From the NCBI GenBank assembly GCA_019058015.1, contig JAHLWH010000199.1, positions 1-18,442 of the forward strand: a stretch of 18,442 nucleotides of DNA. Direction: 5' to 3'. Numbering within the stretch: the stretch's first letter is position 1; every line of letters begins with the position of its first letter. This DNA is from Promethearchaeota archaeon. GTDB lineage: Archaea > Asgardarchaeota > Lokiarchaeia > Sigyniarchaeales > SOKP01. A model generated the notes under the pieces. It saw only the letters and a list, made by a program, of their open reading frames with translations, ran no database searches and had not been told where the DNA came from. A program made the translations under genes and the position numbers. Shown one piece after another: positions 2,331 through 17,931 of the stretch.

Positions 2331-3407
2331 TTAAATTTCACGAGGACCTTCAAGATGATTATGGTTTATTCTTAATATTTTTTTATCCCTGGAATATTTC
2401 CTTTCAGAAGCACTCAAAAAATATTGTTGTTCAACATGGATTTTAGTACCTCCCACTAATTCCAAGGAATGGACAAAATTTTCATAAGTTAAAATGTCAG
2501 ATTTTAATGCTTTAAATAGAGCAACTCTCACTCCACGCTCTAAATCTGCACCTGTGTATCCACGCGTTAAAAATAAAATTCCTCTATTTTCGATAATTGT
2601 TTTATCATTCCATAATGCATTCGAATCTTGTATGGATTTCTTTTTACTCATTAAAGATTTTAATTTTTCTTCCTTAGATTTTAATAATGCATATTCTTTG
2701 TTTAAACTAACAAGAATTACATCATCTACCCCAATTTTTGCGTTACTAATTTTATTAATAAAAGACTCAATTATTTTTTTCCTGAGATGAAATGAAGGAA
2801 AATCAAATTTCAAATGAAATGTAAATCTTCTCCAGATTGCAGAGTCTAATTGGTCTTGATGGTTAGTAGCACCTATAATTGCTAATGGTGTTCCAAAGTA
2901 ATTTATTTTATCAATTATTTGTAAGAAAGATATTACAGCTCTTTTAATTTCGCCTACTTCGTGAATATTCGATCTTTCAGAAGCAATTGCGTCAATTTCA
3001 TCAAAAAATAATATAAAAGCTCCATTTTCTTCAGCAATCTGAGCTGATAATTCCACTACTTTTCTAATATTTTTAACGGTATCGCCTAATAGTGCAGAAA
3101 CTAATCTGTCAGACTCTACTACACACAATGGGATATCAAATTCCTTTGCAAATGCTCGAGTTAAAGAAGTTTTTCCAGTTCCAGGTGGTCCATATAGGAG
3201 GACAGTTAAATTTGGAACTAATTTAGTCTTTTTCAATTTTTCAACAACTTCGGTATATTTTTTTAACGAACTGAAAAAATCTTCAAGCCTTTCCTTTAGA
3301 ACCTCATTTCCTAATATATCACTAACATTCTCTATTATTTCATTCGGTAAATAAACCGTTCCATACTTATCAAGCCTTTCTTTAATTTCATCATCTGTAT
3401 ATGTAAT
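2331..3407 (-). CDS. Single-domain classical AAA+ ATPase; true start probably ATT at 3407 rather than TTG at 3236
   Basis: Walker A GPPGTGKT, Walker B ILFFDEID, sensor-1 GATN, second region of homology LDSAIWRRF, lid GYTGADL. The frame stays open for 59 codons upstream of 3236 and encodes VSDILGNEVLKERLEDFF, matching the conserved 'DIxG.e.vK..l.e' opening of AAA domains. Confidence 0.9.
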   Translation of the reverse strand: MTYTDDEIKERLDKYGTVYLPNEIIENVSDILGNEVLKERLEDFFSSLKKYTEVVEKLKKTKLVPNLTVLLYGPPGTGKTSLTRAFAKEFDIPLCVVESDRLVSALLGDTVKNIRKVVELSAQIAEENGAFILFFDEIDAIASERSNIHEVGEIKRAVISFLQIIDKINYFGTPLAIIGATNHQDQLDSAIWRRFTFHLKFDFPSFHLRKKIIESFINKISNAKIGVDDVILVSLNKEYALLKSKEEKLKSLMSKKKSIQDSNALWNDKTIIENRGILFLTRGYTGADLERGVRVALFKALKSDILTYENFVHSLELVGGTKIHVEQQYFLSASERKYSRDKKILRINHNHLEGPREI

Positions 3408-3413
3408 TTTTTC

Positions 3414-4682
3414 TTACACCCCTTCTTTATTTTTTTTTCTTATTTTATTTAAATATTCACTTAAATCTAAAATTAGTTCCTTAATGCAATCTATGCTAGA
3501 ACCTGCAAAATTAAAAATTTCTTTTCTATATTGGACAGAATCCCGGATTTTCATCCTATCTAATTTTAAATAGTTATTAAAGCATAGAAGTTTCATCATA
3601 TAAGGTATTACTTTTTCTTGAGTTTTCAAACTAGTAAAAATAGGATAGAAAATATTATGATCACTTAATTGACATTTTAAAATTGTCGAAAAAATAATAA
3701 ACGCAAATGTCATAGAAATCCAATTAATTAGTTCTTTAGATAAAAAACCTCGACGTAAAGAAACGAAGGCAAGATAACTTAAAATTAGAGTCTCATTACT
3801 GAATTGAGGTATCAACCTAATCTTGCCATCGGATTGTTTATTTTCTCTAATGAAATCATTTTTAATTAACACATCTATAAAATCATACTTAGGAGCAAGA
3901 AAAATTTCATCTAGAACTCTTAATCCTAAGCGTTCGCAAATTTTTTCAATTGCTTCTTGCTCTTCATGAGCAATATTATCAATAAACGCTTCAAAAACAT
4001 CATTGATCAAGATTACCGGAATTTCTATGTTAGAATCTTCAGGACAAGGATAATAATTAGGATCCAAGTTGTATAAAGAGGTTATATTATTAATTATTTG
4101 GTATAATTTTGGAGAAATACCGGGAATTTCGAAGAAATCCGGGTTATCCACAGTTTCCCTATAATATGTATGTGGGATCATCATATACCTTTGACATTCA
4201 TACCAATTTACTGATGTTTTATTCAACTTCATATAAATTTCTTCAAAATTTTTACCAATAGGCAACAAAAGATCTTCTAAATATTTGTAAAGAAGATATA
4301 AATATGTAGAATTTAATTTTTTTTGATCTGGGTTTGTAATATTTATTAATATTTGTAAAGCACTTATGCATTCATCAAAAAATTCAATTAGATAATCTTT
4401 AATATCTATAGGCTCTAAATCCTCAGAATATTTGTATATAAAATTTTTAATATTTTCAAATACTTTACCTCTATAATATGCCGAGAATTCGGATAAAGCC
4501 CTCACTCTCTTCACTAATCGTTTTTCTTCGTCCATTTTTATCTTATCAAAAATCTTTATGTCCATCATCACTTCCAAACTCATATTTTGGACAGTTCTTT
4601 TTGTTTCTTTGAGGATTGGAACCAGATGACTTAAATATGTTAGATATCTTGCGAAAATGTCTGTCCATTTTTCTCTAACCAT
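3414..4682 (-). CDS. Hypothetical protein (422 aa, mainly helical)
   Basis: Long ORF, ATG preceded by AGGAG, tightly packed in the cluster. The segment FIDVLIKNDFIRENKQSDGKIRLIP could be a winged-helix wing (weak). Confidence 0.8.
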   Translation of the reverse strand: MVREKWTDIFARYLTYLSHLVPILKETKRTVQNMSLEVMMDIKIFDKIKMDEEKRLVKRVRALSEFSAYYRGKVFENIKNFIYKYSEDLEPIDIKDYLIEFFDECISALQILINITNPDQKKLNSTYLYLLYKYLEDLLLPIGKNFEEIYMKLNKTSVNWYECQRYMMIPHTYYRETVDNPDFFEIPGISPKLYQIINNITSLYNLDPNYYPCPEDSNIEIPVILINDVFEAFIDNIAHEEQEAIEKICERLGLRVLDEIFLAPKYDFIDVLIKNDFIRENKQSDGKIRLIPQFSNETLILSYLAFVSLRRGFLSKELINWISMTFAFIIFSTILKCQLSDHNIFYPIFTSLKTQEKVIPYMMKLLCFNNYLKLDRMKIRDSVQYRKEIFNFAGSSIDCIKELILDLSEYLNKIRKKNKEGV

Positions 4683-4707: not shown

Positions 4708-5850
4708 TTAATCTTCAATAGAAGTATCTACTATTACTTCTGCGAAAATTGAACCTATACTCACGAATATATCAATTTCGACACGACACAACTCCCCGAG
4801 AATCCAACGGTTTATATCCTTCAATATAAAGCGAGTCTGGTTGTGGATCTTTCTTCTAACCTCTGTTGTGTCAATTGCTTTCAACCACTCTCCACCACCC
4901 AATCGATAGGCGACAATCTTTATGAGCGGCTCTAATAAGTCTAACAACACCTCTTTCATCATCCAGGACTTGGGAATAACACTCATCCTATTGGAATCGT
5001 ATGAAGGGTCTTTAAGAATTGGATTGGTCTCATCAACGTCAAGTTTAGGCATAAGTGAGATCAAAAAAATTAAACTAAATATGTTACAGATACCGTTTAC
5101 TGTATAAACACCGCCTATTTTCTTTAGATCATCTCTATGAACTGAAATATTGGCTAAAAACAAAGAGATGAAAACTGTTTTATCGAATTTTTCTGAGACC
5201 ATTTTTTCTCCAAGTACTTCATCAGTATAAACATATTCACCTTCTAGGATTTCTAATATTTTTTCAGGAAACGTGTAAAAAGTATAAACTTTTCGCTCGC
5301 TTTTCCTTTTATCTTTTTCAACGATCAATTCTTTCGCTTCTAAACCGAATAAATCCACAAGATCTTGCAAACTCTCTTTTACATATTTACGTGCTTTATT
5401 GGGGTCAGAAAACATTGCGTAAAATTGATGATCTACAATTTGAAAATCCGGTCCTTTACTAAACGCCTCAACTAATCTATCAATGACAGTTCCTTGAACA
5501 TTTAAAGCGATTGTTTTGCTTCTTGATGATATAAAACCATTAATTAATTCATTTATTATAAAATCTTGATCATGAGAGCGAGATTTTATGATACGCTCAA
5601 ATGCTTCAGCCAGATCTTTGGTTTTTGGGAAAAAAGCATTTTGAATTTTCTCATTAATTGATTTTATAAATAGATCTCCATTATTTTGTGGAAAATAATC
5701 TCTCATTACTTTCAATCGTTCGATCAAGGCTTGCTTAGCACCAGGAATATTATCAATATCTCTTTCTTCTAGTTTCTTAATAGATCTATCAATATTTTTA
5801 GAGAATTCAGTAAGTAATTTTTCCCATTCAAGATTATCGATCCCACTCAT
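4708..5850 (-). CDS. Hypothetical protein (380 aa)
   Basis: Long ORF with an AAGGTGAT SD upstream of ATG. A helix plus hairpin segment (YVKESLQDLVDLFGLEAKELIVEKDKRKSERKVYTFY) is weakly winged-helix-like. Confidence 0.8.
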   Translation of the reverse strand: MSGIDNLEWEKLLTEFSKNIDRSIKKLEERDIDNIPGAKQALIERLKVMRDYFPQNNGDLFIKSINEKIQNAFFPKTKDLAEAFERIIKSRSHDQDFIINELINGFISSRSKTIALNVQGTVIDRLVEAFSKGPDFQIVDHQFYAMFSDPNKARKYVKESLQDLVDLFGLEAKELIVEKDKRKSERKVYTFYTFPEKILEILEGEYVYTDEVLGEKMVSEKFDKTVFISLFLANISVHRDDLKKIGGVYTVNGICNIFSLIFLISLMPKLDVDETNPILKDPSYDSNRMSVIPKSWMMKEVLLDLLEPLIKIVAYRLGGGEWLKAIDTTEVRRKIHNQTRFILKDINRWILGELCRVEIDIFVSIGSIFAEVIVDTSIED

Positions 5851-5888: not shown

Positions 5889-6857
5889 TTATTTAGCCCA
5901 ACCTATTTCTTTTTGTAATTTTTTTAAAGCATCAATTAAAAGAGGGACTTCTGATTTATCGTAAATATTTGGTGAGCCTGTTCCTTTTTTTGTAGTCCAA
6001 GATAGTTGTCCTCCATCACCAGCTTCATAATATCCGTATTTTAATAGTTGTTGTAAATTCCTTTCCCATGCATAGAATCTTAACCATTTCTTATTGGGGT
6101 TATCTTTTGAATATATAACAGCTATAGCTTTCCATAAACTCATTAACCATTCTATAGTAATACCCGCTACAGGGAGATAAAAATTAATAGGAAAATTGGT
6201 TGAGAATTCTAATGGGAGATCTTTAGGATCAATATTAAAAATAGGTTCATTACGAGATTCCAAGATGATGATCTCGCCACAGTGTTCACATTCATAATGT
6301 GTTTTTCTTTTACTTAATGTTAATTTTTTACTACAATTCGGGCAAATTTTATTTTCGAGAATTCTATACTTTAGAATTTTTAAACGCTCATTTTGAATTG
6401 CTTTATCTTCTGTTTCTTTTTTTTTTTTTTCAAATCCTTTAAAATTACCCCAATATTCGTCAAATGAAGAATTTATTTTTTCCAAGGATTTGATTAAATT
6501 ATTCAATACTGCTGATTCAGTTATTTTGAAAAAGCCTGCATGTGTATTTATTTCTTTTTTCCACCAACTAAGTCTGATATATTTAGAGTTGCTTAAATAG
6601 GAGCTATGACAGAGTAATGCTGCCACCCACCTATTTGGAGATTTAGAAATGGTAATTCCTTTTTCACAAATTTCATATTTCTTATTTAAACTAGCGTTGT
6701 TATGAAAATAATCTCCTTCTTGAATTTCTCCAATAGTAGTTTCTTTCTTTTTTTCAATTTCTTTGATCTGTCCTTTAATTATTTTTTTACACTTTGGACA
6801 TTGAAATATTTGCTGAACGAGTTGTTCCATCTCAACGTTACATACAGGGCATTTAAT
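5889..6857 (-). CDS. Internally duplicated [Zn-ribbon + PC4/YdbC-like domain]x2 protein; start probably ATT at 6857 (or 6860)
   Basis: In-frame sequence upstream of ATG 6830 encodes I-I-K-C-P-V-C-N-V-E, completing a CPVC...CPKC ribbon. A second ribbon is CPNC...CEHC. Each ribbon is followed by a similar GITI...W.A......K(Y/W)(I/L)R...W....LI..L.K domain. The PC4-like call is an inference. Confidence 0.8.
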   Translation of the reverse strand: MKCPVCNVEMEQLVQQIFQCPKCKKIIKGQIKEIEKKKETTIGEIQEGDYFHNNASLNKKYEICEKGITISKSPNRWVAALLCHSSYLSNSKYIRLSWWKKEINTHAGFFKITESAVLNNLIKSLEKINSSFDEYWGNFKGFEKKKKETEDKAIQNERLKILKYRILENKICPNCSKKLTLSKRKTHYECEHCGEIIILESRNEPIFNIDPKDLPLEFSTNFPINFYLPVAGITIEWLMSLWKAIAVIYSKDNPNKKWLRFYAWERNLQQLLKYGYYEAGDGGQLSWTTKKGTGSPNIYDKSEVPLLIDALKKLQKEIGWAK

Positions 6858-6876: not shown

Positions 6877-7983
6877 TTATACATTTATAATTCTATATCG
6901 TTCATAATCTAAATTAAGTAGCTTTATTTCATTTTTTTCAAATTTAGATACTTCTTTTTTGATATTTACTAATTCTTCTCTTAATTTGACTAATTTATCT
7001 TTAATTTGATTTAAGATATTATCTTCGTTGTATGATATTTTAGTAATAAATTCTAAATAGGTATATTTTTTTCCCTTTCCAGAATAGTAATTTTTAATTT
7101 TACTTAATTCTTCATCAATTTCATTTAATCTATTTCGTTTTATAAGTAAATTTATAAGGATAGAATGCCATTTTTTAAAAATTTCATTTTCTTTATCTAC
7201 AACTTCCTCCAGATCAAATTTAGCAGGTAATTTTTTTACGTTTTCTTGCATATATTCAAGAATGACTTTATTAATGTCTATTGCCTCTTTGATAATTCTG
7301 AGATTTGATTTTTTATTTAATATAGGATCATATAGTTCAATGAAATTGGAGACTTTTTCTAATAATTCTTTAAACCTGTTATAAAATTCATTAATTGTGG
7401 TTTCGACCTTTATTGTTTGATATGGATTTCCTAAATCATCTAAAATTTCATACAGATCGTCTGCTAATAAATAATTTTCCTTACCAATTTCAAATAGAAA
7501 AGGATGAATTATATCGCTATTTTCGCACATAATTCCCTTCAACCTTGAGATGGCATAGTGAAAATTTCGTTTTGTTAAAAATGTGAATTTTTTTGAGATA
7601 ATAGGAAATAATGTATTTTCTGGAACAATTATCTTATTCTCTTCAATTCTTATCGGTTCCAAAATTTTAATTAAAAAATCATCTTCTTTCTTTTCCAGCT
7701 CTTTTAAAGATCTTAAATTTTTAATTATTCCTAAATCTATTAAAATTTCGGTCAGTTCTTTATTTGAATATAATTCCAAATCGCTTTTGAGAATTTCATC
7801 CAAATTCATTAATCTTTTAAATGAATTGAGCCAAGATTCATCTAATAAATTTTTTAACATATCGTTTCGAATTATGTAAAGATATAATAGAATATAGCGA
7901 ATCTCAACATTTTCAAATACTTTATTTATAAGATTTTTATCTACTTCAATGGATAATTGCTTATGCTGTTCCATTTCTTCCAA
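6877..7983 (-). CDS. Hypothetical protein with globular N-terminus and coiled-coil C-terminus; first gene of the left cluster
   Basis: 368-aa ORF (TTG 7983, or ATG 7974); heptad-rich C-terminal half (LNEIDEELSKIK...IKDKLVKLREELVNIKKEVSKFEK). Confidence 0.8.
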   Translation of the reverse strand: MEEMEQHKQLSIEVDKNLINKVFENVEIRYILLYLYIIRNDMLKNLLDESWLNSFKRLMNLDEILKSDLELYSNKELTEILIDLGIIKNLRSLKELEKKEDDFLIKILEPIRIEENKIIVPENTLFPIISKKFTFLTKRNFHYAISRLKGIMCENSDIIHPFLFEIGKENYLLADDLYEILDDLGNPYQTIKVETTINEFYNRFKELLEKVSNFIELYDPILNKKSNLRIIKEAIDINKVILEYMQENVKKLPAKFDLEEVVDKENEIFKKWHSILINLLIKRNRLNEIDEELSKIKNYYSGKGKKYTYLEFITKISYNEDNILNQIKDKLVKLREELVNIKKEVSKFEKNEIKLLNLDYERYRIINV

Positions 7984-8201: not shown

Positions 8202-8933
8202 ATGGGCCGAAGGAAGAAAAGAAAGAAAATTTATAAAAAATCGCGCAAACTTCCCAAAATCTTCACATGTCCATCATGTGGCTCTAAATCAGTTAAAATA
8301 GAGAAGAAAATAAAGTTAATTACATATTCAATAAAATGTATTGATTGTGAGCTAGAATGGGAGGCACATCTGCGCTCAGAAAATGAGTTATATGATATAA
8401 ATGGGGAAAATGTAAAAAACTGCTCTATTTGTGGTGGAAAATTAAAAAAAACAGAATTAAAAGATAAAATTGTCAATTTAGTTGAAGTTAAATGCGGAAC
8501 TTGCGGATTACAAAAAGAGGTTTTAGCCCGTTCTATTGAAGCTGCTGTAGATTTTTATGGGTCATTTATTGACATATATTTTACAGATCAAGAATATCAT
8601 CGTTTAAAGGGTAATATTAAAGAACATCAAAAAGAGAAAAATTGGAACGAATTAGCTTTAACTTATTCACTTCTATCAGATATTACAAAAATTAAAGCCT
8701 CAGAATTATCTAAAGAATATATTTCAACAGGAGAAGAAGAATTACTAGAAGAATCTAATAAATGGAGAGATGAAGCAGCAAACTATAAATTATTAGAAAG
8801 AGATTTACGTGAAAAAATTAAACAAGAAGGTACTGGCGTTGATCTTGAGGAAGAAATAGAGGTAGAAGAAAAACTAGCAAAAGATAAAACGCTTGAAGAG
8901 GTTTTTGATGATCCAGGATTCCTAGAGTGGTAA
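8202..8933 (+). CDS. elf1: Transcription elongation factor Elf1 homologue with an inserted second Zn ribbon and a C-terminal helical/acidic extension
   Basis: Basic N-terminus MGRRKKRKK, LPKIFTCPSCG, and later VKCGTCGL...AVDFYGSFID, matching the Elf1 pattern (F.CP.C ... C..C ... vDvY..wiD). Confidence 0.85.
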   Translation: MGRRKKRKKIYKKSRKLPKIFTCPSCGSKSVKIEKKIKLITYSIKCIDCELEWEAHLRSENELYDINGENVKNCSICGGKLKKTELKDKIVNLVEVKCGTCGLQKEVLARSIEAAVDFYGSFIDIYFTDQEYHRLKGNIKEHQKEKNWNELALTYSLLSDITKIKASELSKEYISTGEEELLEESNKWRDEAANYKLLERDLREKIKQEGTGVDLEEEIEVEEKLAKDKTLEEVFDDPGFLEW

Positions 8934-8937
8934 TCTT

Positions 8938-10704
8938 TTAAAATTTTTCTTTTAATTTAGAAACTCTATTTCTTATTGATTGTTTTGGGTTTTTAGCGAA
9001 GATAATCTTTTCATTTGGATAAGATTTAAAATAATTCATAATTTCATCTGGGATATTTTCCCAAATTGGTATTTTTACGAAATAATCGAAAAAATGTTTA
9101 AATTTTATATTTTTCTTTTTGAAAAAATAAGCCCATCTATAATATGCTATTCGATTGAACGTTTTTATTAAACTGATACCCATTGGATTATACTTGGAAC
9201 TTAAGAACGTTGCGAGGTAAGACCACATTTTTTGAGTTTGTGGTATAGATTCTGGATAAACAGAATCTGATAAAGGTCGTATAAAAATCTCATGAATTGT
9301 TATAATTGGTATCAATTCATCTACTAATTTTAATATTTTTTCTCTATAATTAGGATCATTAACAGACATTGTAGTAATTTTCATCATTTTTCTTTTTGCA
9401 TAATTAAGATGTCTCTCTTTAAAATATAACCACATCTTTGCCATGTCATCTCTTAATTCCTCAAGCTTTTCAATGATTTTTTCTTCATTGAACTCGATTT
9501 TATATTTATTTCCATATTTCCTTACTAATTTTAATAAAATTGAATCAGATTCTTCTTGTTCTAATTCATATAATCCATTTCCCTCTTGAGTATAACTGAG
9601 CTTATGTTGTTTAGGAGAATGAACTGTATGAGTATATAATGGAGTAGTCCATAATTTTTGTCTAATTTTATCTAAGATAATATTTGTTAACTCAATATCT
9701 TTTACTTTTTGCAAGTCTTTCGATAAAGGAATAACTTTTCCTTTCCTTAATTTAAATCTTATTTTATCAATAAGTGAAAATTCCTTTAATTTTTCTGCGA
9801 TTTCCTTTCTTAATTCTTTAATTCTTAGAGTAATAGCGTTATTAGATGAAATTAATTTTTTAATATAAGGGTAAAAATCAATATGATATTTTTTTTTTAT
9901 AAAAGTATTATCAATAAGGGGGATTTCCTTAAATCTTTGCCCTCTATATTTCAAAATACTCATTGCATGATCTCCTATTGAATAAGAAAATACAACATTT
10001 TCTAAGGTTTGATTTAAATTATCATAATTTCCGATTAATTTAGGTCTTTTTATTTTATAACCATGTAAAAGTGTGTCAACTCCTTTAAATCCATCTTTAA
10101 ATTCTGAAATTATCACAGATTCAAATTCTCCAGGATGATGTCTATTTAAATTAAAACGTTTTTCAACAAGGGAATTCGCTTGATTTACTTTATGAAAAAC
10201 TGTATAGCCCCATTTTAATAATGGATTAAGGAATCTCAATAAACCAATATTATGTTCATAAAATAAGGGATTAAAAATGATTGGAAAACCAAATCCACGA
10301 GAAAAATTGTAAATAAACTGAAATACAGACCTTTTTTTTTCATTTGGTAATACACCTGGAAAATCAAAGTTAAATGCAACTCGTGGAAAAACAGCATCCA
10401 TTCCAAGATTCATCCATGCCTCAAACAAATGTATTGCATCGGGAAATCGAAAAGCATCATTTTTTTTCATAAATTCTATATTTAGAGAATTCAATGTGCT
10501 CGGAACAGAAAATAACCAATCGGAATTTTCTTCTAATTCTTTTATACTCTTTTTAAATCTTTTTAAAACAATTGGTTTCATTTTTTTTTGAATATCCTTC
10601 TTTTTTCTATAGTAATTATTCATCACTCGTAATAGTGATATAATTTCTAGAACCCTCTTCTGAGAATCATGTATTACCTTTACTGTTTTTATATTTTCAG
10701 TCAT
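8938..10704 (-). CDS. Hypothetical protein (588 aa, basic, aromatic-rich)
   Basis: Long uninterrupted ORF converging on elf1 with a 4-bp gap; no family motif recognised. Confidence 0.8.
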   Translation of the reverse strand: MTENIKTVKVIHDSQKRVLEIISLLRVMNNYYRKKKDIQKKMKPIVLKRFKKSIKELEENSDWLFSVPSTLNSLNIEFMKKNDAFRFPDAIHLFEAWMNLGMDAVFPRVAFNFDFPGVLPNEKKRSVFQFIYNFSRGFGFPIIFNPLFYEHNIGLLRFLNPLLKWGYTVFHKVNQANSLVEKRFNLNRHHPGEFESVIISEFKDGFKGVDTLLHGYKIKRPKLIGNYDNLNQTLENVVFSYSIGDHAMSILKYRGQRFKEIPLIDNTFIKKKYHIDFYPYIKKLISSNNAITLRIKELRKEIAEKLKEFSLIDKIRFKLRKGKVIPLSKDLQKVKDIELTNIILDKIRQKLWTTPLYTHTVHSPKQHKLSYTQEGNGLYELEQEESDSILLKLVRKYGNKYKIEFNEEKIIEKLEELRDDMAKMWLYFKERHLNYAKRKMMKITTMSVNDPNYREKILKLVDELIPIITIHEIFIRPLSDSVYPESIPQTQKMWSYLATFLSSKYNPMGISLIKTFNRIAYYRWAYFFKKKNIKFKHFFDYFVKIPIWENIPDEIMNYFKSYPNEKIIFAKNPKQSIRNRVSKLKEKF

Positions 10705-10992: not shown

Positions 10993-11400
10993 TTATATTT
11001 TTTTTCTTTTAGAAAACAATTCTTTGAGCTCTCCCATAATAGCACCTCTTAGAGAGATTGGATTAGCTGCTCTCGCTGGTTCAGGACCAGCGGGTGGACG
11101 TCCCGGAGGTGGTGGAGGCGCTCCTGGCGGAGGTGGTGGAGCTCCTGGGGAGCGAGCCAGACTTCCAGCTCCTGCTGATACAGCCGTAGCTCCTTGAGCA
11201 GTTCTTGTTTCCAGTGAAGTGAGCCTTCCTTCAATTGAAGAAATTCTTGAATTTATAACAGATAAGCTTTGATCTACTAAATTGGGAATTTTTAACACAA
11301 TTTTCATTATACTTTCAATGATATCTGCAAGTCCTTGGAGTTTTTCATCAAGTGGTGCTTTCCGGGTTGCAGCTAACATTGAATTAAATTCTTCGGCTAT
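10993..11400 (-). CDS. Small coiled-coil + polyproline + C-terminal basic amphipathic helix protein (candidate actin regulator); start ATA 11400 or ATG 11379
   Basis: Heptads LSVINSRISSIEGRLTSLETR, a Gly/Ala linker, PGAPPPPPGAPPPPPGRPP, then LRGAIMGELKELFSKRKKI. In-frame ATA-GCC-GAA-GAA-TTT-AAT-TCA precedes the ATG, and an AGGGG motif lies 9 nt upstream of the ATA. Confidence 0.8.
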   Translation of the reverse strand: MAEEFNSMLAATRKAPLDEKLQGLADIIESIMKIVLKIPNLVDQSLSVINSRISSIEGRLTSLETRTAQGATAVSAGAGSLARSPGAPPPPPGAPPPPPGRPPAGPEPARAANPISLRGAIMGELKELFSKRKKI

Positions 11401-11523: not shown

Positions 11524-12144
11524 TCAGTCAAATCCAATAGTAGAATCTTTTAATTTATTCCATAAAGAATTAACTTCATTCCTCGTCGATTCAATATGTT
11601 CAACCTTCTTCAAATAACGTCCTTTAGATCTGTCAAACTCCTTTTGTATGTTTTTAAATTCTTGGTCCAACATTTCTAGTTTCTCTCCTTCAATTAATTT
11701 GTTCTTAGATATTTCGATTTTTAAAGCTTTATGAACAACTGCTTTTCTTTTTGAAGATACATCCTTTAATGCTTCAGTTAATTCTTGAAATTCTTTATGT
11801 AGATATTCTCTTTGTAATCCTAGATCTTTTATGGCGTTAAGAAATTTTTTATTATTTTCATATATTTGTTCATTATCATGAATTATTTTTTGAATTATTT
11901 TCCCATCGTTCTCATCGATATTAGACATTTTTTCTCTTGCTAGTACTTTCATCTGTTTATACACATCTCGAGCAGTTCTTAAAAAAACTTCTCGTGCAGA
12001 ATTTTCTTTGATTATAAGGTCAGATAATTTCATATGCGCTGCTGTAACACTCTTTTGAGAGCCAATCATTTTATTCCAATTCTTTACGAGTTCCACTTCA
12101 AATTTTGCTAAATCTATCTCATCCTCGGGTGTTAATATCGGCAA
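11524..12144 (-). CDS. All-helical ~200-aa protein, possibly BAR-domain-like
   Basis: 206-aa ORF (TTG start), no Pro after residue 6, continuous amphipathic heptads, and a basic patch SSKRKAVVHKALKIEISKNK. The BAR call is an inference from size and pattern. Confidence 0.65.
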   Translation of the reverse strand: MPILTPEDEIDLAKFEVELVKNWNKMIGSQKSVTAAHMKLSDLIIKENSAREVFLRTARDVYKQMKVLAREKMSNIDENDGKIIQKIIHDNEQIYENNKKFLNAIKDLGLQREYLHKEFQELTEALKDVSSKRKAVVHKALKIEISKNKLIEGEKLEMLDQEFKNIQKEFDRSKGRYLKKVEHIESTRNEVNSLWNKLKDSTIGFD

Positions 12145-13277: not shown

Positions 13278-14345
13278 TTAAATCTTATATCTTAATATAG
13301 CAGCAATACTTCCGAAACTGATTAATTGTTCTCCAGCAGAATGCTCACTACTAAAAATTTCTATTTTCCCGGTTTTTTTTTCAATTATATTTAATATATC
13401 TTCAAGTTCTGATCGTTTATCAAATGAGAGTCCTCTTAATAATTTATCAGAAATTAGTAGTATATCAATCGCTCCCATTTTCGCTGCATTTTTTATCTGA
13501 TCCCAACCATAGGATACCAATCTAGTATCTTTCCCTAATTGTTCGATAAATTTTTCCATTAGATTAGTTTCATAAATTATTCGTGAAGTTCTTTTAATTT
13601 TTTCTAATTTTTTTGATTTCATAACTTCTTTTATTGCGCTAGAGGTTGCGGAACTCGAATTAATGACTTTAATTTTGTGAGCTAAACTTGGGTGACTCTT
13701 TTTTAATAGATCTATATATTTTTCTTTAAAGCCTCCGGCACCAGTAATAATAATTAAGTTTATATCAATTCGCTCTAAATTATCTGCAATAATTGTGTCA
13801 ATTTTTCCAAAAAATTCCCCAATTTCTTTATTTCTTAGTGTTTTTTCATATCTTTTTCCGGGGATGTTATGCTTAATACTGGTTATTATTTTTTGACTAT
13901 AATCCGAAATAATTGCAACCGTTGCTAATCCTGATTCAATAGCGATAATAAGGATTCGAAAAATTTGAACCTTTGAACATTTTTCTATTCGATTTAAATC
14001 TTGTTTCATCCATTTCTTTTTAATAATAGTGATTATAGAGCCAACAGAAACATTTAAAGTGTGATAAGAGCCAAGAGAAATTAAATCTTCAGGTCCAGAT
14101 AAAATAATTCCTTTAATCCTCAGACGATTTGAATATTCATGAAATGCTACATCTTTTACTTCAAGAGTTAAGATCATAGGTTTGCGATCTCCAGAATCAC
14201 CTTCCCTAAGGACAATACGTCTTGTAGTTTTCGATATAGCTTTATCATCCTTGTAAATTACATTAAATAAGACCCAAAGATCATTTAAACATTCTATTTG
14301 AACTTTTAATTCTCCTTTCTTATCGTCGAAATGCTTAATTTTCAA
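13278..14345 (-). CDS. pelA: mRNA surveillance / ribosome rescue protein Pelota (Dom34)
   Basis: NDLWVLFNVI..DD....TTRR, RLRIKG, GSYHTLNV, IPGKRY, YG...I..AA.MGAI..LLISD, SSEHSAGEQL..FG.IAAILRY are the typical aPelota motifs. Confidence 0.95.
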   Translation of the reverse strand: MKIKHFDDKKGELKVQIECLNDLWVLFNVIYKDDKAISKTTRRIVLREGDSGDRKPMILTLEVKDVAFHEYSNRLRIKGIILSGPEDLISLGSYHTLNVSVGSIITIIKKKWMKQDLNRIEKCSKVQIFRILIIAIESGLATVAIISDYSQKIITSIKHNIPGKRYEKTLRNKEIGEFFGKIDTIIADNLERIDINLIIITGAGGFKEKYIDLLKKSHPSLAHKIKVINSSSATSSAIKEVMKSKKLEKIKRTSRIIYETNLMEKFIEQLGKDTRLVSYGWDQIKNAAKMGAIDILLISDKLLRGLSFDKRSELEDILNIIEKKTGKIEIFSSEHSAGEQLISFGSIAAILRYKI

Positions 14346-14466
14346 AAGAATTTCTCAAGCTCATAAAGATTAAATTTATCCATCTAGAAATAAATATAAT
14401 ACTCTATTTTATTAAAAATCATTAGACTCATTTAATTTTTCTATTAAGATTTATTCAAATTATCAC

Positions 14467-14747
14467 ATAAAAGCATCTGAAGTCTTAAATCTATTGAGAG
14501 TATCAAGACCAACATTAACTAACTACGGAAAACAAGGATTGGATTTAATTTATTTCAAAGATTATTTAGAGAGTCCGGAACCGAGATAATTGTTATTAAT
14601 GATTTAGAGTCTATCTTTACTGAACAAGAAATGTTTCAAGATATTATTTCCTTATTACATTGTTATGCGATGTCAATGTACTCACGGAGAATAAAAGAAT
14701 TCATAAAAAAAAAGAAGGAGGAATTTAAAAACGAGATTAGTGTATAA
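14467..14747 (+). pseudogene. tnpA: IS607 TnpA (serine recombinase) with internal deletion and frameshift
   Basis: From ATA 14467: IKASEVLNLLRVSRPTLTNYGKQGL (MerR-like HTH of IS607 TnpA). In another frame from about 14535: RIGFNLFQRLFRESGTEIIVIND...EQEMFQDIISLLHCYAMSMYSRR...stop at 14747 (IS607 TnpA C-terminus). The catalytic YARVS region is absent. Confidence 0.9.
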
Positions 14748-16008
14748 ATTTAGGTATCATAAAAGTGTTCATTTAGATGTACTATGTTATATTTCCAAAA
14801 AGCTATATAATCACGCAAATTTCTATGTAAGACAAGATTTCTTTAACTTAGAGAATTGGCTTCGCTATCAAGATTTGAATTTTATTTTGAAAAATTCTGA
14901 AAGCTATAAATTATTAAAGGCACAGACGTCTCAACAAATGTTAAAAATCTTAGATAAAAATTGGGTAAGCTTTTTCAACTCACTAAAAGAATGGAGGAAA
15001 AATCGAAAAAAATTCAACGGAAGCCCCAGACCGCCGGGATATAAAGAAGATACTTGTTATTTTCTGATATTTACTAATCAAAACAGTAAAATCGTGAATA
15101 ATAAGATCGTGCTTACCATGTCTAAATTTTTTAAAAGCACTTTCCCTCAATTTAAGGATTCAATAGAAATTAACATTCCTAAATATAAAAATAAAAATTT
15201 TAAGGCATATCAGCAAATACGCATTTTACCAAGAAAAAGATTTTATGAAATTGAAATTATATACATAAAATCGGTGGAGAAATCAAAATTAAATAATGAA
15301 TTATATTTATCTATTGATTTTGGATTGAACAATTTAATAACGGCTGTAGAAAATAGAAATTCTGTGCCAATAATAGTTTCAGGTAAAGTATTAAAATCCA
15401 TTAATAGACGATGGAATAAAAGAAAAGCCAAACTGTATTCTATAAAAGATAAGCAAAAATTAAGGTGGACAACCCAACTTGATTTTATTACCATAAATCG
15501 AAACTCAGTTATTAACGACTATTTACATAAAACATCACAATTTATAGTTGGTTATTGTTTAAAAAAAAAAATAGGAAATATTTGTGTAAGAAAATTGAAA
15601 GATATAAAAAGAAATATAAGAATTGGCAAAAGAAACAATCAAAATTTTGTTAATATCCCAATTCAAAAACTCAAGCAAATGATAACTTATAAAGCTAAAC
15701 TTGTAGGAATTAAGGTCCATGAAGTAGATGAGTCGTATACTTCGAAATGTAGCTCATTGGATTTAGAACCTATTGAAAAACACCATAATTATATTGGGAA
15801 CCGAATTAAAAGAGGGTTGTTTAAAGGCTCAAATTATTTACTCAATGCGGATGTAAATGGAGCCTTAAATATCTTAAGAAAAGTAGTCGGAGATGATTTT
15901 ATACAAGATCTATCCGATAGGGGTTGCTGGTTTCAACCCGTGCGAATAAGGGACATGTTCCAAACTTCACATGAACAATTTTTATTAAAACCTATTAGTA
16001 TTATTTAA
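14740..16008 (+). CDS. tnpB: RNA-guided endonuclease TnpB (IS607-associated)
   Basis: SKKLYNHANF, AQTSQQML, RuvC-I SIDFGLNNL, DYLHKTS, NNQNFVNIP, YKAKLVGI..VDESYTSKC, RIKRGLF, RuvC-III NADVNGALNI. Confidence 0.95.
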   Translation: MYKFRYHKSVHLDVLCYISKKLYNHANFYVRQDFFNLENWLRYQDLNFILKNSESYKLLKAQTSQQMLKILDKNWVSFFNSLKEWRKNRKKFNGSPRPPGYKEDTCYFLIFTNQNSKIVNNKIVLTMSKFFKSTFPQFKDSIEINIPKYKNKNFKAYQQIRILPRKRFYEIEIIYIKSVEKSKLNNELYLSIDFGLNNLITAVENRNSVPIIVSGKVLKSINRRWNKRKAKLYSIKDKQKLRWTTQLDFITINRNSVINDYLHKTSQFIVGYCLKKKIGNICVRKLKDIKRNIRIGKRNNQNFVNIPIQKLKQMITYKAKLVGIKVHEVDESYTSKCSSLDLEPIEKHHNYIGNRIKRGLFKGSNYLLNADVNGALNILRKVVGDDFIQDLSDRGCWFQPVRIRDMFQTSHEQFLLKPISII

Positions 16009-16050
16009 CATTTTTAATAAAATTGATAACCTAGTGAATATTTTAAAAAA
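15880..16050 (+). ncRNA. Putative TnpB omegaRNA/reRNA overlapping the tnpB 3' end and the right end; boundaries approximate
   Basis: Expected position for TnpB guide scaffolds. Visible stems: GGGTTG/CAACCC (15921-15939), TGTTC/GAACA (15956-15977), TTTTATTAAAA/TTTTAATAAAA (15980-16022). Confidence 0.5.
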
Positions 16051-16080
16051 AAAGTGAGGAAAAAAATAATTAAAATAAGA
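16045..16080 (-). terminator. Oligo-T archaeal terminator candidate for the 50-aa gene
   Basis: The minus strand reads TCTTATTTTAATTATTTTTTTCCTCACTTTTTTTTT directly after the TAA stop. Confidence 0.5.
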
Positions 16081-16233
16081 TTATTGCTTTTCTAAAGCCT
16101 CTTTTACTTTTTCCAATTCTTCCTTTCTTTTTTCACGTTCGGCTTTTATTCTGTCTACTTCTGTTTGGTCAACAGGGCTTAAAGTTTTACCCTCTTTAAT
16201 CGCTTTCTTTATCTCATCATCAAGTTGTGGCAT
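16081..16233 (-). CDS. Unannotated 50-aa microprotein with a WH2/actobindin-like motif
   Basis: MPQLDDEIKKAIKEGKTLSPVDQTEVDRIKAEREKRKEELEKVKEALEKQ*. ATG preceded by AGGGATAAGGAAA, TATA-like TTATAAATA upstream, T-tracts after the stop, and higher GC than its flanks. Confidence 0.8.
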   Translation of the reverse strand: MPQLDDEIKKAIKEGKTLSPVDQTEVDRIKAEREKRKEELEKVKEALEKQ

Positions 16234-16287
16234 TTTCCTTATCCCTACATCTATTGTTTATATATTATGATCATACAAAATCGGTAT

Positions 16288-16296
16288 ATTTATAAT
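16288..16296 (-). promoter_or_regulatory. TATA-box candidate for the 50-aa gene
   Basis: Minus-strand TTATAAATA about 55 nt upstream of ATG 16233. The AT-rich background limits certainty. Confidence 0.4.
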
Positions 16297-16318
16297 TATC
16301 TAGATATTTTTAAATCAA

Positions 16319-16783
16319 CTACAACTTGAGTTTCATCAAATTTGATGAGGCTCCAGATTCATAATAGTTATCAATTATTTTGATTACTTTAAAACCATAC
16401 TTTTGATATAAATGAATTGCGACATCATTGTCAGTTTTTACATTTAGAATAATTGATTTAAATTTATTTTTATTTTTTATTTCTTTTAATGTCCTTTTTA
16501 ATAGAAAGGAGCCTAATCCTTGATGTTGATACTCTTCTCTTATTAAAAGATTTATAATATTTGCCCTATTTTTTACACCCTCAATTGAAATAGAAAATCC
16601 AAGGATTTTTTCTGTTTCATCTACTAATTTTATGAACAATAATTTATTTTTAAGTAATTTTTTTAGAAGATCCATAGAAAATGCATCTATTCCAAACATT
16701 TTTTCTTCTAAATAAGAGATCTCCTCTATATCTTTATTTGTAACATTTTTTATTATCATTGATAATGGCAATTTCATGAGCAA
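16319..16783 (-). CDS. GNAT N-acetyltransferase, RimI/Ard1-like
   Basis: IINLLIREEYQHQGLGSFLL (acetyl-CoA-binding Q..G.G), LNVKTDNDVAIHLYQKYGF, NYYESG. The exact start is uncertain because there are several Met/TTG codons. Confidence 0.9.
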   Translation of the reverse strand: MLMKLPLSMIIKNVTNKDIEEISYLEEKMFGIDAFSMDLLKKLLKNKLLFIKLVDETEKILGFSISIEGVKNRANIINLLIREEYQHQGLGSFLLKRTLKEIKNKNKFKSIILNVKTDNDVAIHLYQKYGFKVIKIIDNYYESGASSNLMKLKL

Positions 16784-16800
16784 CTTTACTAATAAATATA

Positions 16801-17931
16801 TTATTCTTTAAAAATATTAATTAAGCTTATTGGTGTTTTCTCAGTTATTTGATAATACATGCCGCGAAATGGTGTTCCTTCAATAATATAGCACTCTAAT
16901 TTGTATTTTTTTAATTCTCTGACAAATTTTTGGTGAATTGGAATATACCATGGTAAATAAATTTTTGACTCTTTAAAAGAAAAGAAATTCTTAGGTAAGT
17001 TTAATTTTGATATGACATTATCGCGAAACTCCCTTAGAGACACTTCTTTACCTTCAATTTGTGCATAAATAAGAAGACCTGCATTATTAACTACTTCATA
17101 GGGCGCCTTAATACTTCTTGCTCTCCGTTTATATCGATTTTTTAATTGATAATGATCCTTTAAAATAATGGGACAATAGTGAAGATTTAACTTTGTTTTT
17201 TTTGCTACATTTTCAATTAGTTTGAGAGCTGATTCTTCGCTGTTTTTAACAGATGCAATTGTTCCTTCTTTTAATAAAAATCCTTTAGATTTAAGAGTTT
17301 CACTATTTGGAAAACACATTTCAAATTCATTTAAATTGATAAAATCACAATTAATTTTATCTAAATAAAAGATAAATTCTTTTAAAGTTTTCAAATTCTT
17401 TTTATCAGGAATTACCGGAACTTCTGCACCCACAGACATACTTTTATTTAACGCATATTTAATATTATTCCAATTCTCCTTAAAAGGATGAAATCTTATC
17501 TCATCTAATCCTGCCAAGGATAATTTTTGCGCTAATTGCTCATTAAAATTAACTCCATTGGTATATAGATGTATATGAAAATTAGAATCCATTTTTTTTT
17601 TTAAAAAAATTATATAATCCAGGGTCTGATTTATATTATTAGGGGCAAGAGGTTCTCCACCAGTTATTGAAACACCATTGGCCTTTATAAGATTAATTTC
17701 TTTTAATACATCTTTAGAATCTTTAACCTGAATTTCATCAGCGTATGTTATTTGTTTATTTTTTCTTTCTTCTGAGATAGGACAATACCAAGAACAATGA
17801 TCAGGTTTCTGACAAATTCCATTAAGGAATAGAACGACCTTTTGTCCCTTTATACAATATTTACATCCCTTAGGAATCCCACGAATAAAATAAGATTCAC
17901 CTTTGGTTTTATATAATTCTGCTCGTGTCAA
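16801..17931 (-). CDS. Radical SAM protein, archaeal COG2108-like
   Basis: PKGCKYC.KG.KVVLF.NG.C, YCPISEER, GVSITGGEPL, FHIHLYTNG, AGLDEIRFHP, GAEVPVIP, FINLNEFE, HYC. TTG start preceded by GAGGT. Confidence 0.88.
   Translation of the reverse strand: MTRAELYKTKGESYFIRGIPKGCKYCIKGQKVVLFLNGICQKPDHCSWYCPISEERKNKQITYADEIQVKDSKDVLKEINLIKANGVSITGGEPLAPNNINQTLDYIIFLKKKMDSNFHIHLYTNGVNFNEQLAQKLSLAGLDEIRFHPFKENWNNIKYALNKSMSVGAEVPVIPDKKNLKTLKEFIFYLDKINCDFINLNEFEMCFPNSETLKSKGFLLKEGTIASVKNSEESALKLIENVAKKTKLNLHYCPIILKDHYQLKNRYKRRARSIKAPYEVVNNAGLLIYAQIEGKEVSLREFRDNVISKLNLPKNFFSFKESKIYLPWYIPIHQKFVRELKKYKLECYIIEGTPFRGMYYQITEKTPISLINIFKE

Follow-up and report, generated by a model that had tools for sequence, protein, structure and literature searches.

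The actin-binding WH2 domain (PF02205) occurs in N-WASP, WAVE, WIP and MIM, and tandem forms of it are found in Spire, Cordon-bleu and VopL/VopF. Here we analyzed a microprotein of 50 amino acids (aa) that a preliminary description, made from the DNA letters alone, had likened to this domain and to the beta-thymosin/ciboulot/actobindin family (PF01290). It is encoded on the minus strand of a stretch of 18,442 nucleotides from a Promethearchaeota archaeon (contig JAHLWH010000199.1 of assembly GCA_019058015.1); this whole stretch is called the window below. Among archaeal actin ligands in the published texts, two come closest to such a peptide. The C-terminal peptide of arcadin-2 from Crenarchaeota binds the hydrophobic groove of crenactin and depolymerizes its filaments, and arcadin-2 was called a functional analogue of thymosin beta-4 by its authors (PMC5173319). 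In crystals, LKKT-like motifs of Asgard gelsolins (LRRV, LKHV and LVDV/LKDV) contact actin (PMC9433394, PMC7444086 and the preprint version of PMC13716822). The Asgard actin regulators named in these texts are profilins and gelsolins (PMC12050087, PMC13716822 and its preprint), and the accessible literature on WH2 and thymosin in Asgard archaea places WH2-like motifs only inside gelsolins. A literature search for an Asgard actin microprotein returned nothing related. A free-standing or profilin-fused WH2-like module in archaea has no description in the literature searched and may be undescribed.

The best explanation of our results is that the microprotein is a free-standing copy of a two-part module of about 46 residues that is specific to one order of Lokiarchaeia. 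We tentatively favor, with a confidence that stops short of an even chance, the reading that this module is a putative actin-binding peptide working like a WH2 domain or a beta-thymosin, of which the gene in the window encodes the free form.

The microprotein gene is real, is under purifying selection and is translated in a cultured relative. The earlier suggestion of a hidden 50-aa gene was thus borne out by conservation, by substitution rates and by proteomic detection of an orthologue. The frame runs from an ATG to a TAA codon and translates to MPQLDDEIKKAIKEGKTLSPVDQTEVDRIKAEREKRKEELEKVKEALEKQ. In a translated search for relatives, a small frame of 48-92 aa with the same sequence pattern was found in 58 of 61 genomes at E <= 1, and in 35 of 36 genomes when the window's family was considered alone. 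With a profile built from 25 diverse family members (A4), matches at E <= 1e-4 were obtained in 71 of the 301 genomes of the phylum, including 63 of 68 from the window's family and all seven from one sister family. The gene was also present in two genomes (G041 and G045) of a further family of the same order, and the microprotein family is confined to this one order of Lokiarchaeia. The ratio of nonsynonymous to synonymous substitution rates (dN/dS) was 0.08-0.22 in unsaturated pairs; in distant pairs synonymous sites were saturated (proportion of synonymous differences, pS, 0.7-0.95), with a proportion of nonsynonymous differences (pN) of 0.13-0.29. A HMMER scan of 1.84 billion representative proteins returned 67 relatives at E <= 1e-3, of which 54 are stand-alone proteins of 25-77 aa; the top match, P0028, had an E value of 2.2e-29. 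Proteomics had been proposed as a check on the gene, and in the cultured relative mass spectrometry detected five peptides of the orthologue, covering 43.5% of its sequence (PMC13716822).

Searches of annotated collections gave little beyond this. NCBIfam, PADLOC and PHROGs held no match for the peptide or its longer relatives, Rfam placed no RNA family in positions 14300-16400, and the ESM Atlas returned only unnamed clusters of about 50 aa (0.80-0.81). Pfam also gave weak matches, to HIP1_clath_bdg in 8 of 23 members (best E 2.2e-4) and to DUF3006 in 14 of 23; they are below the cut-off, are located on the charged helix described next and were read as compositional.

The sequence LDDEIKKAIKEGKTLSPV was present as described earlier and is followed by a stretch in which 54% of the residues are charged (E/K/R). 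The I..G..L..V pattern within it occurred 35 times in the 4300 frames of at least 100 aa of the genome, compared to 25-45 times in five shuffles; the pattern alone is thus at chance frequency, and it is the conservation of the motif that constitutes the signal. Across the 25 diverse members, E7, I12, K35, R36 and L47 are invariant, and L8, K9, L18, E25, E32, E39, L40 and K42 are conserved in at least 90%. Within the window's own family (23 sequences), all members have L4 and at least 90% have G15. Between L18 and position 21, most relatives carry x-K (LxKV/LxKP), and two of the 25 members, both from other families (L090 and L083), carry K-K, which gives LKKV. One sister clade has no Gly at the equivalent of position 15 and a linker that is two residues longer. 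The preliminary description had proposed a WH2 pattern and, as a check, a test of its conservation in homologues. The positions corresponding to I12, L18 and, inside the window's own family, G15 are indeed kept, at the canonical WH2 spacing, but V21 is not conserved.

An AlphaFold2 model of the 50-aa protein, computed from an alignment of the 25 sequences, predicted two helices joined by a non-helical linker (mean predicted local distance difference test score, pLDDT, 88.5; predicted template modeling score, pTM, 0.47). The hydrophobic moment peaks at 0.71 over residues 3-13 of the first helix, decreases to 0.05-0.25 in the middle of the second (residues 23-36, almost purely charged) and reaches 0.5 over residues 37-50, which are amphipathic. 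Model and moment together match the layout put forward earlier, i.e., an amphipathic helix, a short Leu-bearing linker and then a charged E/K/R helix. A Foldseek search of the PDB with this model gave no match at E <= 10.

The module resembles a WH2 domain in several respects. Its predicted N-terminal helix is amphipathic and about three turns long, as expected of a WH2 domain, and leads into a flexible linker that carries a key Leu; the module can stand alone, form tandem arrays or lie next to profilin-related functions. When a family profile (A1) was compared to 177,635 PDB sequences, the best match was the N-WASP tandem-WH2 chain 3m3n_W (E 4.3e-4), and a second N-WASP chain, 2vcp_D, had an E value of 0.1. 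The HMMER alignment to N-WASP falls on ..IxxGxxLxKV.. and places I12-x2-G15-x2-L18-x2-V21 on the WH2 core, with L8 four residues before I12. Moreover, the weak matches of the Pfam WH2 hidden Markov model (HMM) in the genomes of relatives cluster in the microprotein family: of 11 such matches in the six frames of five genomes, three were in this family, which makes up roughly 0.04% of a genome, and these comprise the sole match in G044, the top match in G041 and the runner-up in G050. Three other matches that were checked lie in unrelated frames. In contrast to WH2 domains, the module has no match at the Pfam cut-off, usually has a single Lys where LKKV has two basic residues (S-P in the window's protein), carries a long conserved charged helix with an invariant K-R that WH2 domains lack, and is confined to one archaeal order, with an actin binding that is putative.

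The likeness to beta-thymosins lies in the free-standing form and in the length of about 45-55 residues, and it extends to the predicted order of N-terminal helix, LKKV-type linker and C-terminal helix; the beta-thymosin layout (40-55 residues, N-helix, LKKT linker, C-helix) is thus found in the 50-aa protein. Members from a sister family, with the linker longer by two residues, read ...KLKKV (L083) and start with Met-Ser. The thymosin HMM, however, matches no member of the family, the C-terminal helix, at 27 residues, exceeds that of beta-thymosins in length and, by far, in charge, and monomer sequestration is only putative for the microprotein. Arcadin-2 (PMC5173319) offers a short helical archaeal peptide in the groove of an archaeal actin, but this peptide shows no sequence likeness to the microprotein, belongs to a protein of 200 residues from the arcade cluster, and comes from another phylum with another actin, crenactin; its binding was demonstrated, whereas that of the microprotein is putative. 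As for the Asgard gelsolins, the Leu-x-x-Val/Thr element is shared (PMC9433394, PMC7444086), but there it consists of four residues in an inter-domain linker of the gelsolin fold, whereas the module is independent and has a helix of its own.

As judged from profile comparison, the stand-alone, profilin-fused and tandem forms of the module are homologous. In hhalign, the stand-alone family (A4) matched the tandem repeats (A5) with a probability of 97.3% (E 1.7e-11, 43 columns). Scored with the A1 HMM, three of four ten-repeat proteins reached 58-70 bits, the fourth 37.7 bits and the profilin fusions 36-47 bits. The ten-repeat protein, of about 490 aa, consists of ten tandem copies of the 46-residue module. 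Among 35 tandem repeats, the linker Leu equivalent to L18 is the only invariant column, and the Arg of the K-R pair is conserved in at least 90%. Of 14 sister-family genomes, 8 were found to encode the ten-repeat protein, as against none of 101 from the window's family, the window's genome included; frames of about 490 aa with weak matches in the window's own family turned out to be membrane proteins. When the ten-repeat protein was used as query in a word-based search for homologues, only two proteins were retrieved. An AlphaFold2 model of the ten-repeat protein predicted helices of about 37 residues with non-helical linkers of 8-9 residues (mean pLDDT 64.7, pTM 0.17), and most linkers had a pLDDT below 50 (segments 24-30, 69-74, 115-121, 211-214, 364-367 and 405-412, among others). 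This gives a weak indication of a protein that is not predicted to form a compact solenoid and that would carry its invariant Leu in flexible linkers; the structural reading is weak because the alignment was shallow (eight sequences).

Fusions to profilin link the module to actin. The N-terminal domain of L030 (251 aa) matched the PDB chains 5zza_P (E 2.1e-9), 5yed_A (E 1.6e-7) and 5zzb_A (E 4.4e-6), which we take to be Asgard profilins (their PDB titles read 'Uncharacterized protein'), as well as 7pbh_A, titled 'Profilin' (E 7.1e-5). In Pfam, Profilin was the best match of L030 and was among the weak matches of L032, in both cases below the cut-off. In L030 the module is located at residues 148-198, behind the profilin domain, and is followed by a small C-terminal domain. 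P0074 combines a profilin domain with two modules, and P0070 with four. Only one genus yielded the one-module profilin fusion at full length, with cases in G020, G027 and G099 and one in G033 that is split over two contigs.

The module is also present in other contexts. In the window's genome, a coiled-coil protein of 248 aa (contig C272; L002:877-1623, plus strand) ends in a module (AELKGALSKGNPLKPIDPQELKEIKEEREKR, E 6e-7). A short Pro-containing stretch, RRPPTAKTPINP, precedes the module in this protein, a small-GTPase gene lies 2 kb upstream, and the layout of coiled coil, Pro stretch and WH2-like module is kept in the genus, in frames of 253-265 aa of G001 and G004. Elsewhere, the module is joined to an RHH-type domain (P0080, P0086, L105 and L106), to LRR repeats plus RHH (P0076 and L103), and, in proteins of 320-360 aa, to a small Ras-like GTPase and an RHH-type domain, between which it lies (L101:1227-2285, minus strand; L102:648-1733, plus strand; L104:889-1857, minus strand). 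Two of these three GTPase proteins have a second module at the RHH side. Some of these RHH, LRR and GTPase fusion proteins come from the genus to which the window belongs; the window's assembly yielded no such fusion.

The genome to which the window belongs (3.84 Mb, 283 contigs, a Loki-type Asgard archaeon) would supply a partner: its canonical Lokiactin (L022:1495-2637, minus strand) scores 443.8 bits against Pfam Actin and matches eukaryotic actins at E about 1e-160. The genome also has two further actin-family genes and three profilin-like genes. Two of the three profilin-like proteins are about 205 aa long (C81:4437-5063, minus strand, and C170:10379-10999, plus strand) and are extended at the C terminus by a segment starting DPQ(L/M)KS(E/K)I..., which is similar to the N-terminal end of the microprotein (MPQLDDEI...) but out of register after about ten residues. 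Such extended profilins of about 205 aa are common in the window's family.

We then turned to a published co-immunoprecipitation (co-IP) with an antibody against Lokiactin from formaldehyde-fixed Ca. L. ossiferum, part of a study of crawling motility (PMC13716822). Among the enriched proteins, its main text singles out one profilin, five gelsolin-homology proteins and an ARF GTPase. In its tables (files 7 and 10), a 'hypothetical protein' of 56.41 kDa, GNAMCCOK_04085 (UYP47766.1), was identified by 44 peptides with 70.5% coverage, and it was enriched with a log2 ratio of 4.53 (adjusted p 0.0021), fourth in the volcano list; Lokiactin itself reached 4.44 and the best named gelsolin, B35_2DGel1, 3.97 (PMC13716822). 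The monoisotopic masses that we calculated for frames of G055 were 56.414 kDa for the ten-repeat protein (488 aa), 42.747 for Lokiactin (377 aa) and 8.239 for the small frame in its 69-aa form, which starts at an upstream GTG. The tables give 56.41, 42.75 and 8.24, and the gene numbers are collinear with genome position in G055. GNAMCCOK_04085 is thus a candidate for the ten-repeat protein and GNAMCCOK_02436 (UYP46132.1) for the small protein, identified by mass and gene order and not by sequence; exact protein look-ups of the ten-repeat protein, with seven candidate starts from three genomes, returned nothing, so that it is by mass and gene order that this protein is tied to the co-IP table. 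The 55-aa form of the small protein is WP_371806818.1 of Ca. L. ossiferum. In the proteome, the small protein ranked 519, the ten-repeat protein (by mass match) 301 and Lokiactin 67 (PMC13716822). The literature searched contained no paper on UYP47766, UYP46132, WP_371806818 or their locus tags. The link of the module to actin is one of context: it is fused to Asgard profilin, and its ten-copy form, as matched by mass, is enriched with Lokiactin.

Under the WH2/beta-thymosin-like reading, the microprotein would bind Lokiactin as WH2 and beta-thymosin peptides bind eukaryotic actin. The first helix, with L4, L8 and I12 on one face, would occupy the hydrophobic cleft between subdomains 1 and 3 at the barbed face, and the flexible linker with L18 (LxKV in most relatives, LSPV here) would run along the actin surface. 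The charged helix may extend toward the pointed face, as in beta-thymosin, or may serve as an electrostatic or spacer element. A single module would buffer monomers, sequester them or pass them on, and modules placed behind profilin in one to four copies, or repeated ten times, would feed or nucleate filaments. The contact with actin, its geometry and the cellular role are all inferred.

A number of results weigh against this reading. Position 21 varies between V, P, L and A, the window's genus has S-P between L18 and V21 (LSPV), and a WH2 model does not account for what is conserved in the second helix, namely the invariant K35 and R36 together with E39, L40 and L47. None of the WH2 and thymosin profile scans, proposed earlier as a check, reached the curated Pfam cut-offs (23.1 bits for WH2, 24.8 bits for beta-thymosin). 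At E <= 10 the WH2 HMM matched neither the window's protein nor any other part of its genome; it matched one of 23 members (E 0.025) and the ten-repeat protein (13.3 bits), both below the cut-off. The genome-wide WH2 matches, at 12-15 bits, did not rise above the noise level of 8 of 14 control genomes. The thymosin HMM did not match the window's protein, and its four weak matches in the genomes of five relatives were all outside the microprotein family. By HMM cut-off, the protein thus belongs neither to PF02205 nor to PF01290, and its likeness to both, read from the sequence, is one of pattern and layout and not of family membership. The match to 3m3n_W is the sum of three near-identical stretches of 7-9 bits in an engineered chain, and by the same repeat effect the ten-repeat protein gave a plainly spurious match to designed TIM barrels (E 1e-3); the N-WASP match is no stronger than this spurious one. 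A profile of the 35 tandem repeats alone retrieved no WH2 chain from the PDB, only coiled coils at E > 0.1. P0087, an eukaryote-like protein of 762 aa with FHA, PP1-binding and two SAP domains, contains seven repeats of the type TPLRNEIKAGTSLRQV (...IKAG..LR.V), which match the A4 module profile and, weakly, Pfam WH2 (E 0.0021); the motif type therefore also arises in proteins with no known link to actin.

The distribution of the family and the co-IP data point in the same direction. At E <= 1e-4, the A4 profile matched none of the 225 genomes from 28 other families of the phylum. The present data do not support a shared origin with eukaryotic WH2, because the family is confined to one order; the WH2 likeness does not decide between descent and convergence, the narrow distribution favors a lineage-specific origin, and convergence on the hydrophobic cleft of actin is at least as likely as common descent. 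In the co-IP, the orthologue of the small protein was not enriched (log2 0.57, adjusted p 0.105; PMC13716822), so that it is expressed, as its peptides attest, without being enriched with actin. Acryloyl-CoA reductase (log2 9.18), lysyl-tRNA synthetase (7.72) and GTP cyclohydrolase 1 (5.11) were enriched above Lokiactin (PMC13716822, file 7 sheet Fig ED3j, and file 10 sheet CoIP). These three metabolic enzymes are probably antibody or bead artefacts, and since they exceed actin, the list includes unspecific proteins, which tempers any reading of it. Overall, layout, spacing and actin context speak for the WH2/beta-thymosin likeness proposed in the preliminary description, and the HMM results, position 21, the co-IP of the small protein and the restriction to one order speak against it.

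Several of these observations would fit another function. The module could be a general helix-linker-helix adaptor or oligomerization (coiled-coil) element whose partner is not actin and whose WH2 likeness is coincidental; the microprotein would then pair with the charged helices of the modules linked to profilin, RHH, GTPase and LRR domains. We consider this unlikely, yet it is a serious candidate: the fusions to RHH, to LRR plus RHH and to GTPase plus RHH are equally compatible with an adaptor or coiled-coil element of general use, conservation is highest in the second helix, whose PDB matches are coiled coils, the small protein is not enriched with Lokiactin, every WH2 or thymosin HMM match is below threshold, and similar motifs occur in unrelated proteins such as P0087 and the designed TIM barrels. 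Against it stand three independent profilin fusions with one, two and four modules and a ten-repeat protein (by mass match) enriched with Lokiactin above every named actin-binding protein. Furthermore, the sole invariant column of the tandem repeats is the linker Leu and not a heptad position, the middle of the second helix has nearly no hydrophobic moment and would be poor for a classical coiled coil, and the weak WH2 HMM matches in the family are far above its share of the genome. If actin is the partner after all, the module could instead bind the side of Lokiactin filaments, one per subunit, like nebulin or tropomyosin, with the microprotein as a weak single-site filament decorator. Formaldehyde-fixed cells, as used in the co-IP, favor filament-bound proteins (PMC13716822), the enriched form has ten regular helical repeats of about 46 residues, and weak binding by a single module fits the log2 ratio of 0.57 of the small protein. 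But profilin is a monomer binder, so that fusion to it points to G-actin, an amphipathic helix with a Leu linker is the layout of cleft binders, and the PDB and Pfam searches gave no likeness to nebulin or tropomyosin; we hold filament-side binding to be quite improbable.

The neighborhood of the gene suggested a further role, in translation or ribosome rescue, or as a substrate of the neighboring acetyltransferase, given the RimI-like GNAT and pelota flanks. A GNAT acetyltransferase and a radical-SAM gene precede the microprotein gene on the same strand (see the table), and in relatives pelota follows about 90 bp downstream. In the window's family, the gene order radical-SAM, GNAT, small gene, pelota, radical-SAM persists: the small gene lies between a GNAT or radical-SAM gene and pelota in 16 of 19 loci and has one of these flanks only in the other 3; G055 also has the GNAT gene directly upstream. 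This order is absent from five of six loci from sister families, G055 being the only one that keeps the upstream GNAT gene, so that we read the synteny as inheritance and not as function. Intergenic gaps of about 90-110 bp and a Shine-Dalgarno (SD)-like sequence for each small gene suggest separate units, no match to ribosomal or translation families was obtained, and the profilin fusions and the tandem form would be left unexplained; a translation role is thus very doubtful to us. That the frame is no gene at all but a chance open frame in AT-rich DNA would agree with its 50 codons, with the chance frequency of the motif alone and with the RNA data, in which no run is listed as containing window positions 15900-16900 and four metatranscriptome runs compared at 85% likeness yielded no contig. 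This possibility, to which we assign next to no weight, is refuted by the conservation in two families with a conserved start and SD, the low dN/dS and the 67 relatives, together with the orthologue peptides.

The sequence around the frame is consistent with an expressed gene, and the positions of its features are given in the table. An SD-like stretch, TAGGGATAAGGAAA, abuts the ATG, in line with the SD-like motif named in the preliminary description, and the start region is conserved in orthologues: among 19 orthologous loci, AGGTG is located 6-10 nucleotides before the start in 14 and AGGAG in one, and the form GGGATAAGGA occurs in the four loci of the window's own genus. In several orthologues, GTG or TTG replaces ATG at the equivalent start codon. 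The T-rich terminator suggested previously was recognized as T7 and T9 runs on the coding strand after the stop (plus-strand A-runs 16060-16066 and 16045-16053), which have the usual look of an archaeal oligo-T terminator and likely act as one. The tract is in native DNA, outside the insertion described below, whose right edge is near 16031. The TATA candidate fared less well: A/T-rich stretches are present, but they are weak evidence because the surrounding DNA has only 25-29% G+C. A scan for bacterial-type promoters and terminators found no hairpin terminator, and promoter-like sites were not above shuffles.

Table. Positions of the microprotein gene, its predicted structural elements and other features of the window.
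Feature	Position	Strand	Basis or remark
Microprotein coding sequence	16081..16233	-	ATG 16231-16233, TAA 16081-16083; open reading frame (ORF) list, conservation, dN/dS
N-terminal amphipathic helix, residues 2-13 (L4, L8, I12 on one face), proposed actin-cleft-binding element	16195..16230	-	AlphaFold2, hydrophobic moment, conservation
Non-helical linker EGKTLSPVD, residues 14-22, with G15 and near-invariant L18 (LxKV-type element)	16168..16194	-	AlphaFold2, conservation
Long charged helix, residues 23-49 (invariant K35, R36, L47; near-invariant E39, L40, K42)	16087..16167	-	AlphaFold2 (pLDDT 90-93), conservation
SD-like stretch	16234..16247	-	Abuts ATG on coding strand; sequence and orthologue comparison
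T-rich tract, likely oligo-T terminator	16040..16080	-	3' of stop; from sequence
TATA-like stretches	16257-16268; 16285-16299		A/T-rich
GNAT acetyltransferase gene	16319-16783	-	Upstream of the microprotein gene
Radical-SAM gene	16801-17931	-	Upstream of the microprotein gene
TnpB-only insertion	about 14393/14419 to 16031		About 1.6 kb
TnpB ORF	14740-16008	+	IS200/IS605-type OrfB, Cas12f-like TNB domain
Elf1-like zinc-ribbon protein	8202-8933	+	243 aa
AAA ATPase gene	2331-3236	-	Within the run of unmatched frames
Weak zinc-finger frame	5889-6830	-	Within the run of unmatched frames
Eight sizeable frames	2-1090; 1201-2268; 3414-4682; 4708-5850; 6877-7983; 8938-10704; 10993-11379; 11524-12144	-	No Pfam match at E <= 1e-3

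Three other features of the window were observed. In the window, the TnpB-only insertion parts the small gene from pelota; it is the only copy in the assembly by megablast, and three genomes of the same genus have no insertion and align across the gap. The eight sizeable frames with no Pfam match lie in a same-strand run that also holds the AAA ATPase gene and the weak zinc-finger frame. The Elf1-like zinc-ribbon protein is far longer than the Pfam model, which has 79 positions.

If the module does bind actin as proposed, several consequences would follow. A WH2/beta-thymosin-like peptide with fused and tandem forms would extend the means of actin control in archaea to monomer buffering and possibly nucleation, and the origin of the most widespread eukaryotic actin-binding motif would become testable with a synthetic peptide of 50 residues. 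The GTPase, RHH and LRR fusions could then be actin-sensing regulators. Independently of that condition, the ten-repeat protein offers a candidate identity for the 56-kDa hypothetical protein, whose recovery with Lokiactin in the published data equals or exceeds that of any known regulator. A bolder extension, which we regard as improbable though worth stating, is that one Asgard order possesses a complete WH2/beta-thymosin-like toolkit derived from one putative actin-binding module, in which the microprotein would buffer Lokiactin monomers, the profilin fusions would deliver them, the ten-module protein would nucleate or rule filaments, and the RHH and GTPase fusions would couple free-actin levels to gene regulation or signaling in the manner of RPEL/MRTF. 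With such a toolkit, a third class would join profilin and gelsolin as actin regulators of archaea, and WH2 would either have its root in prokaryotes or have a striking convergent counterpart at the same hot spot of actin.

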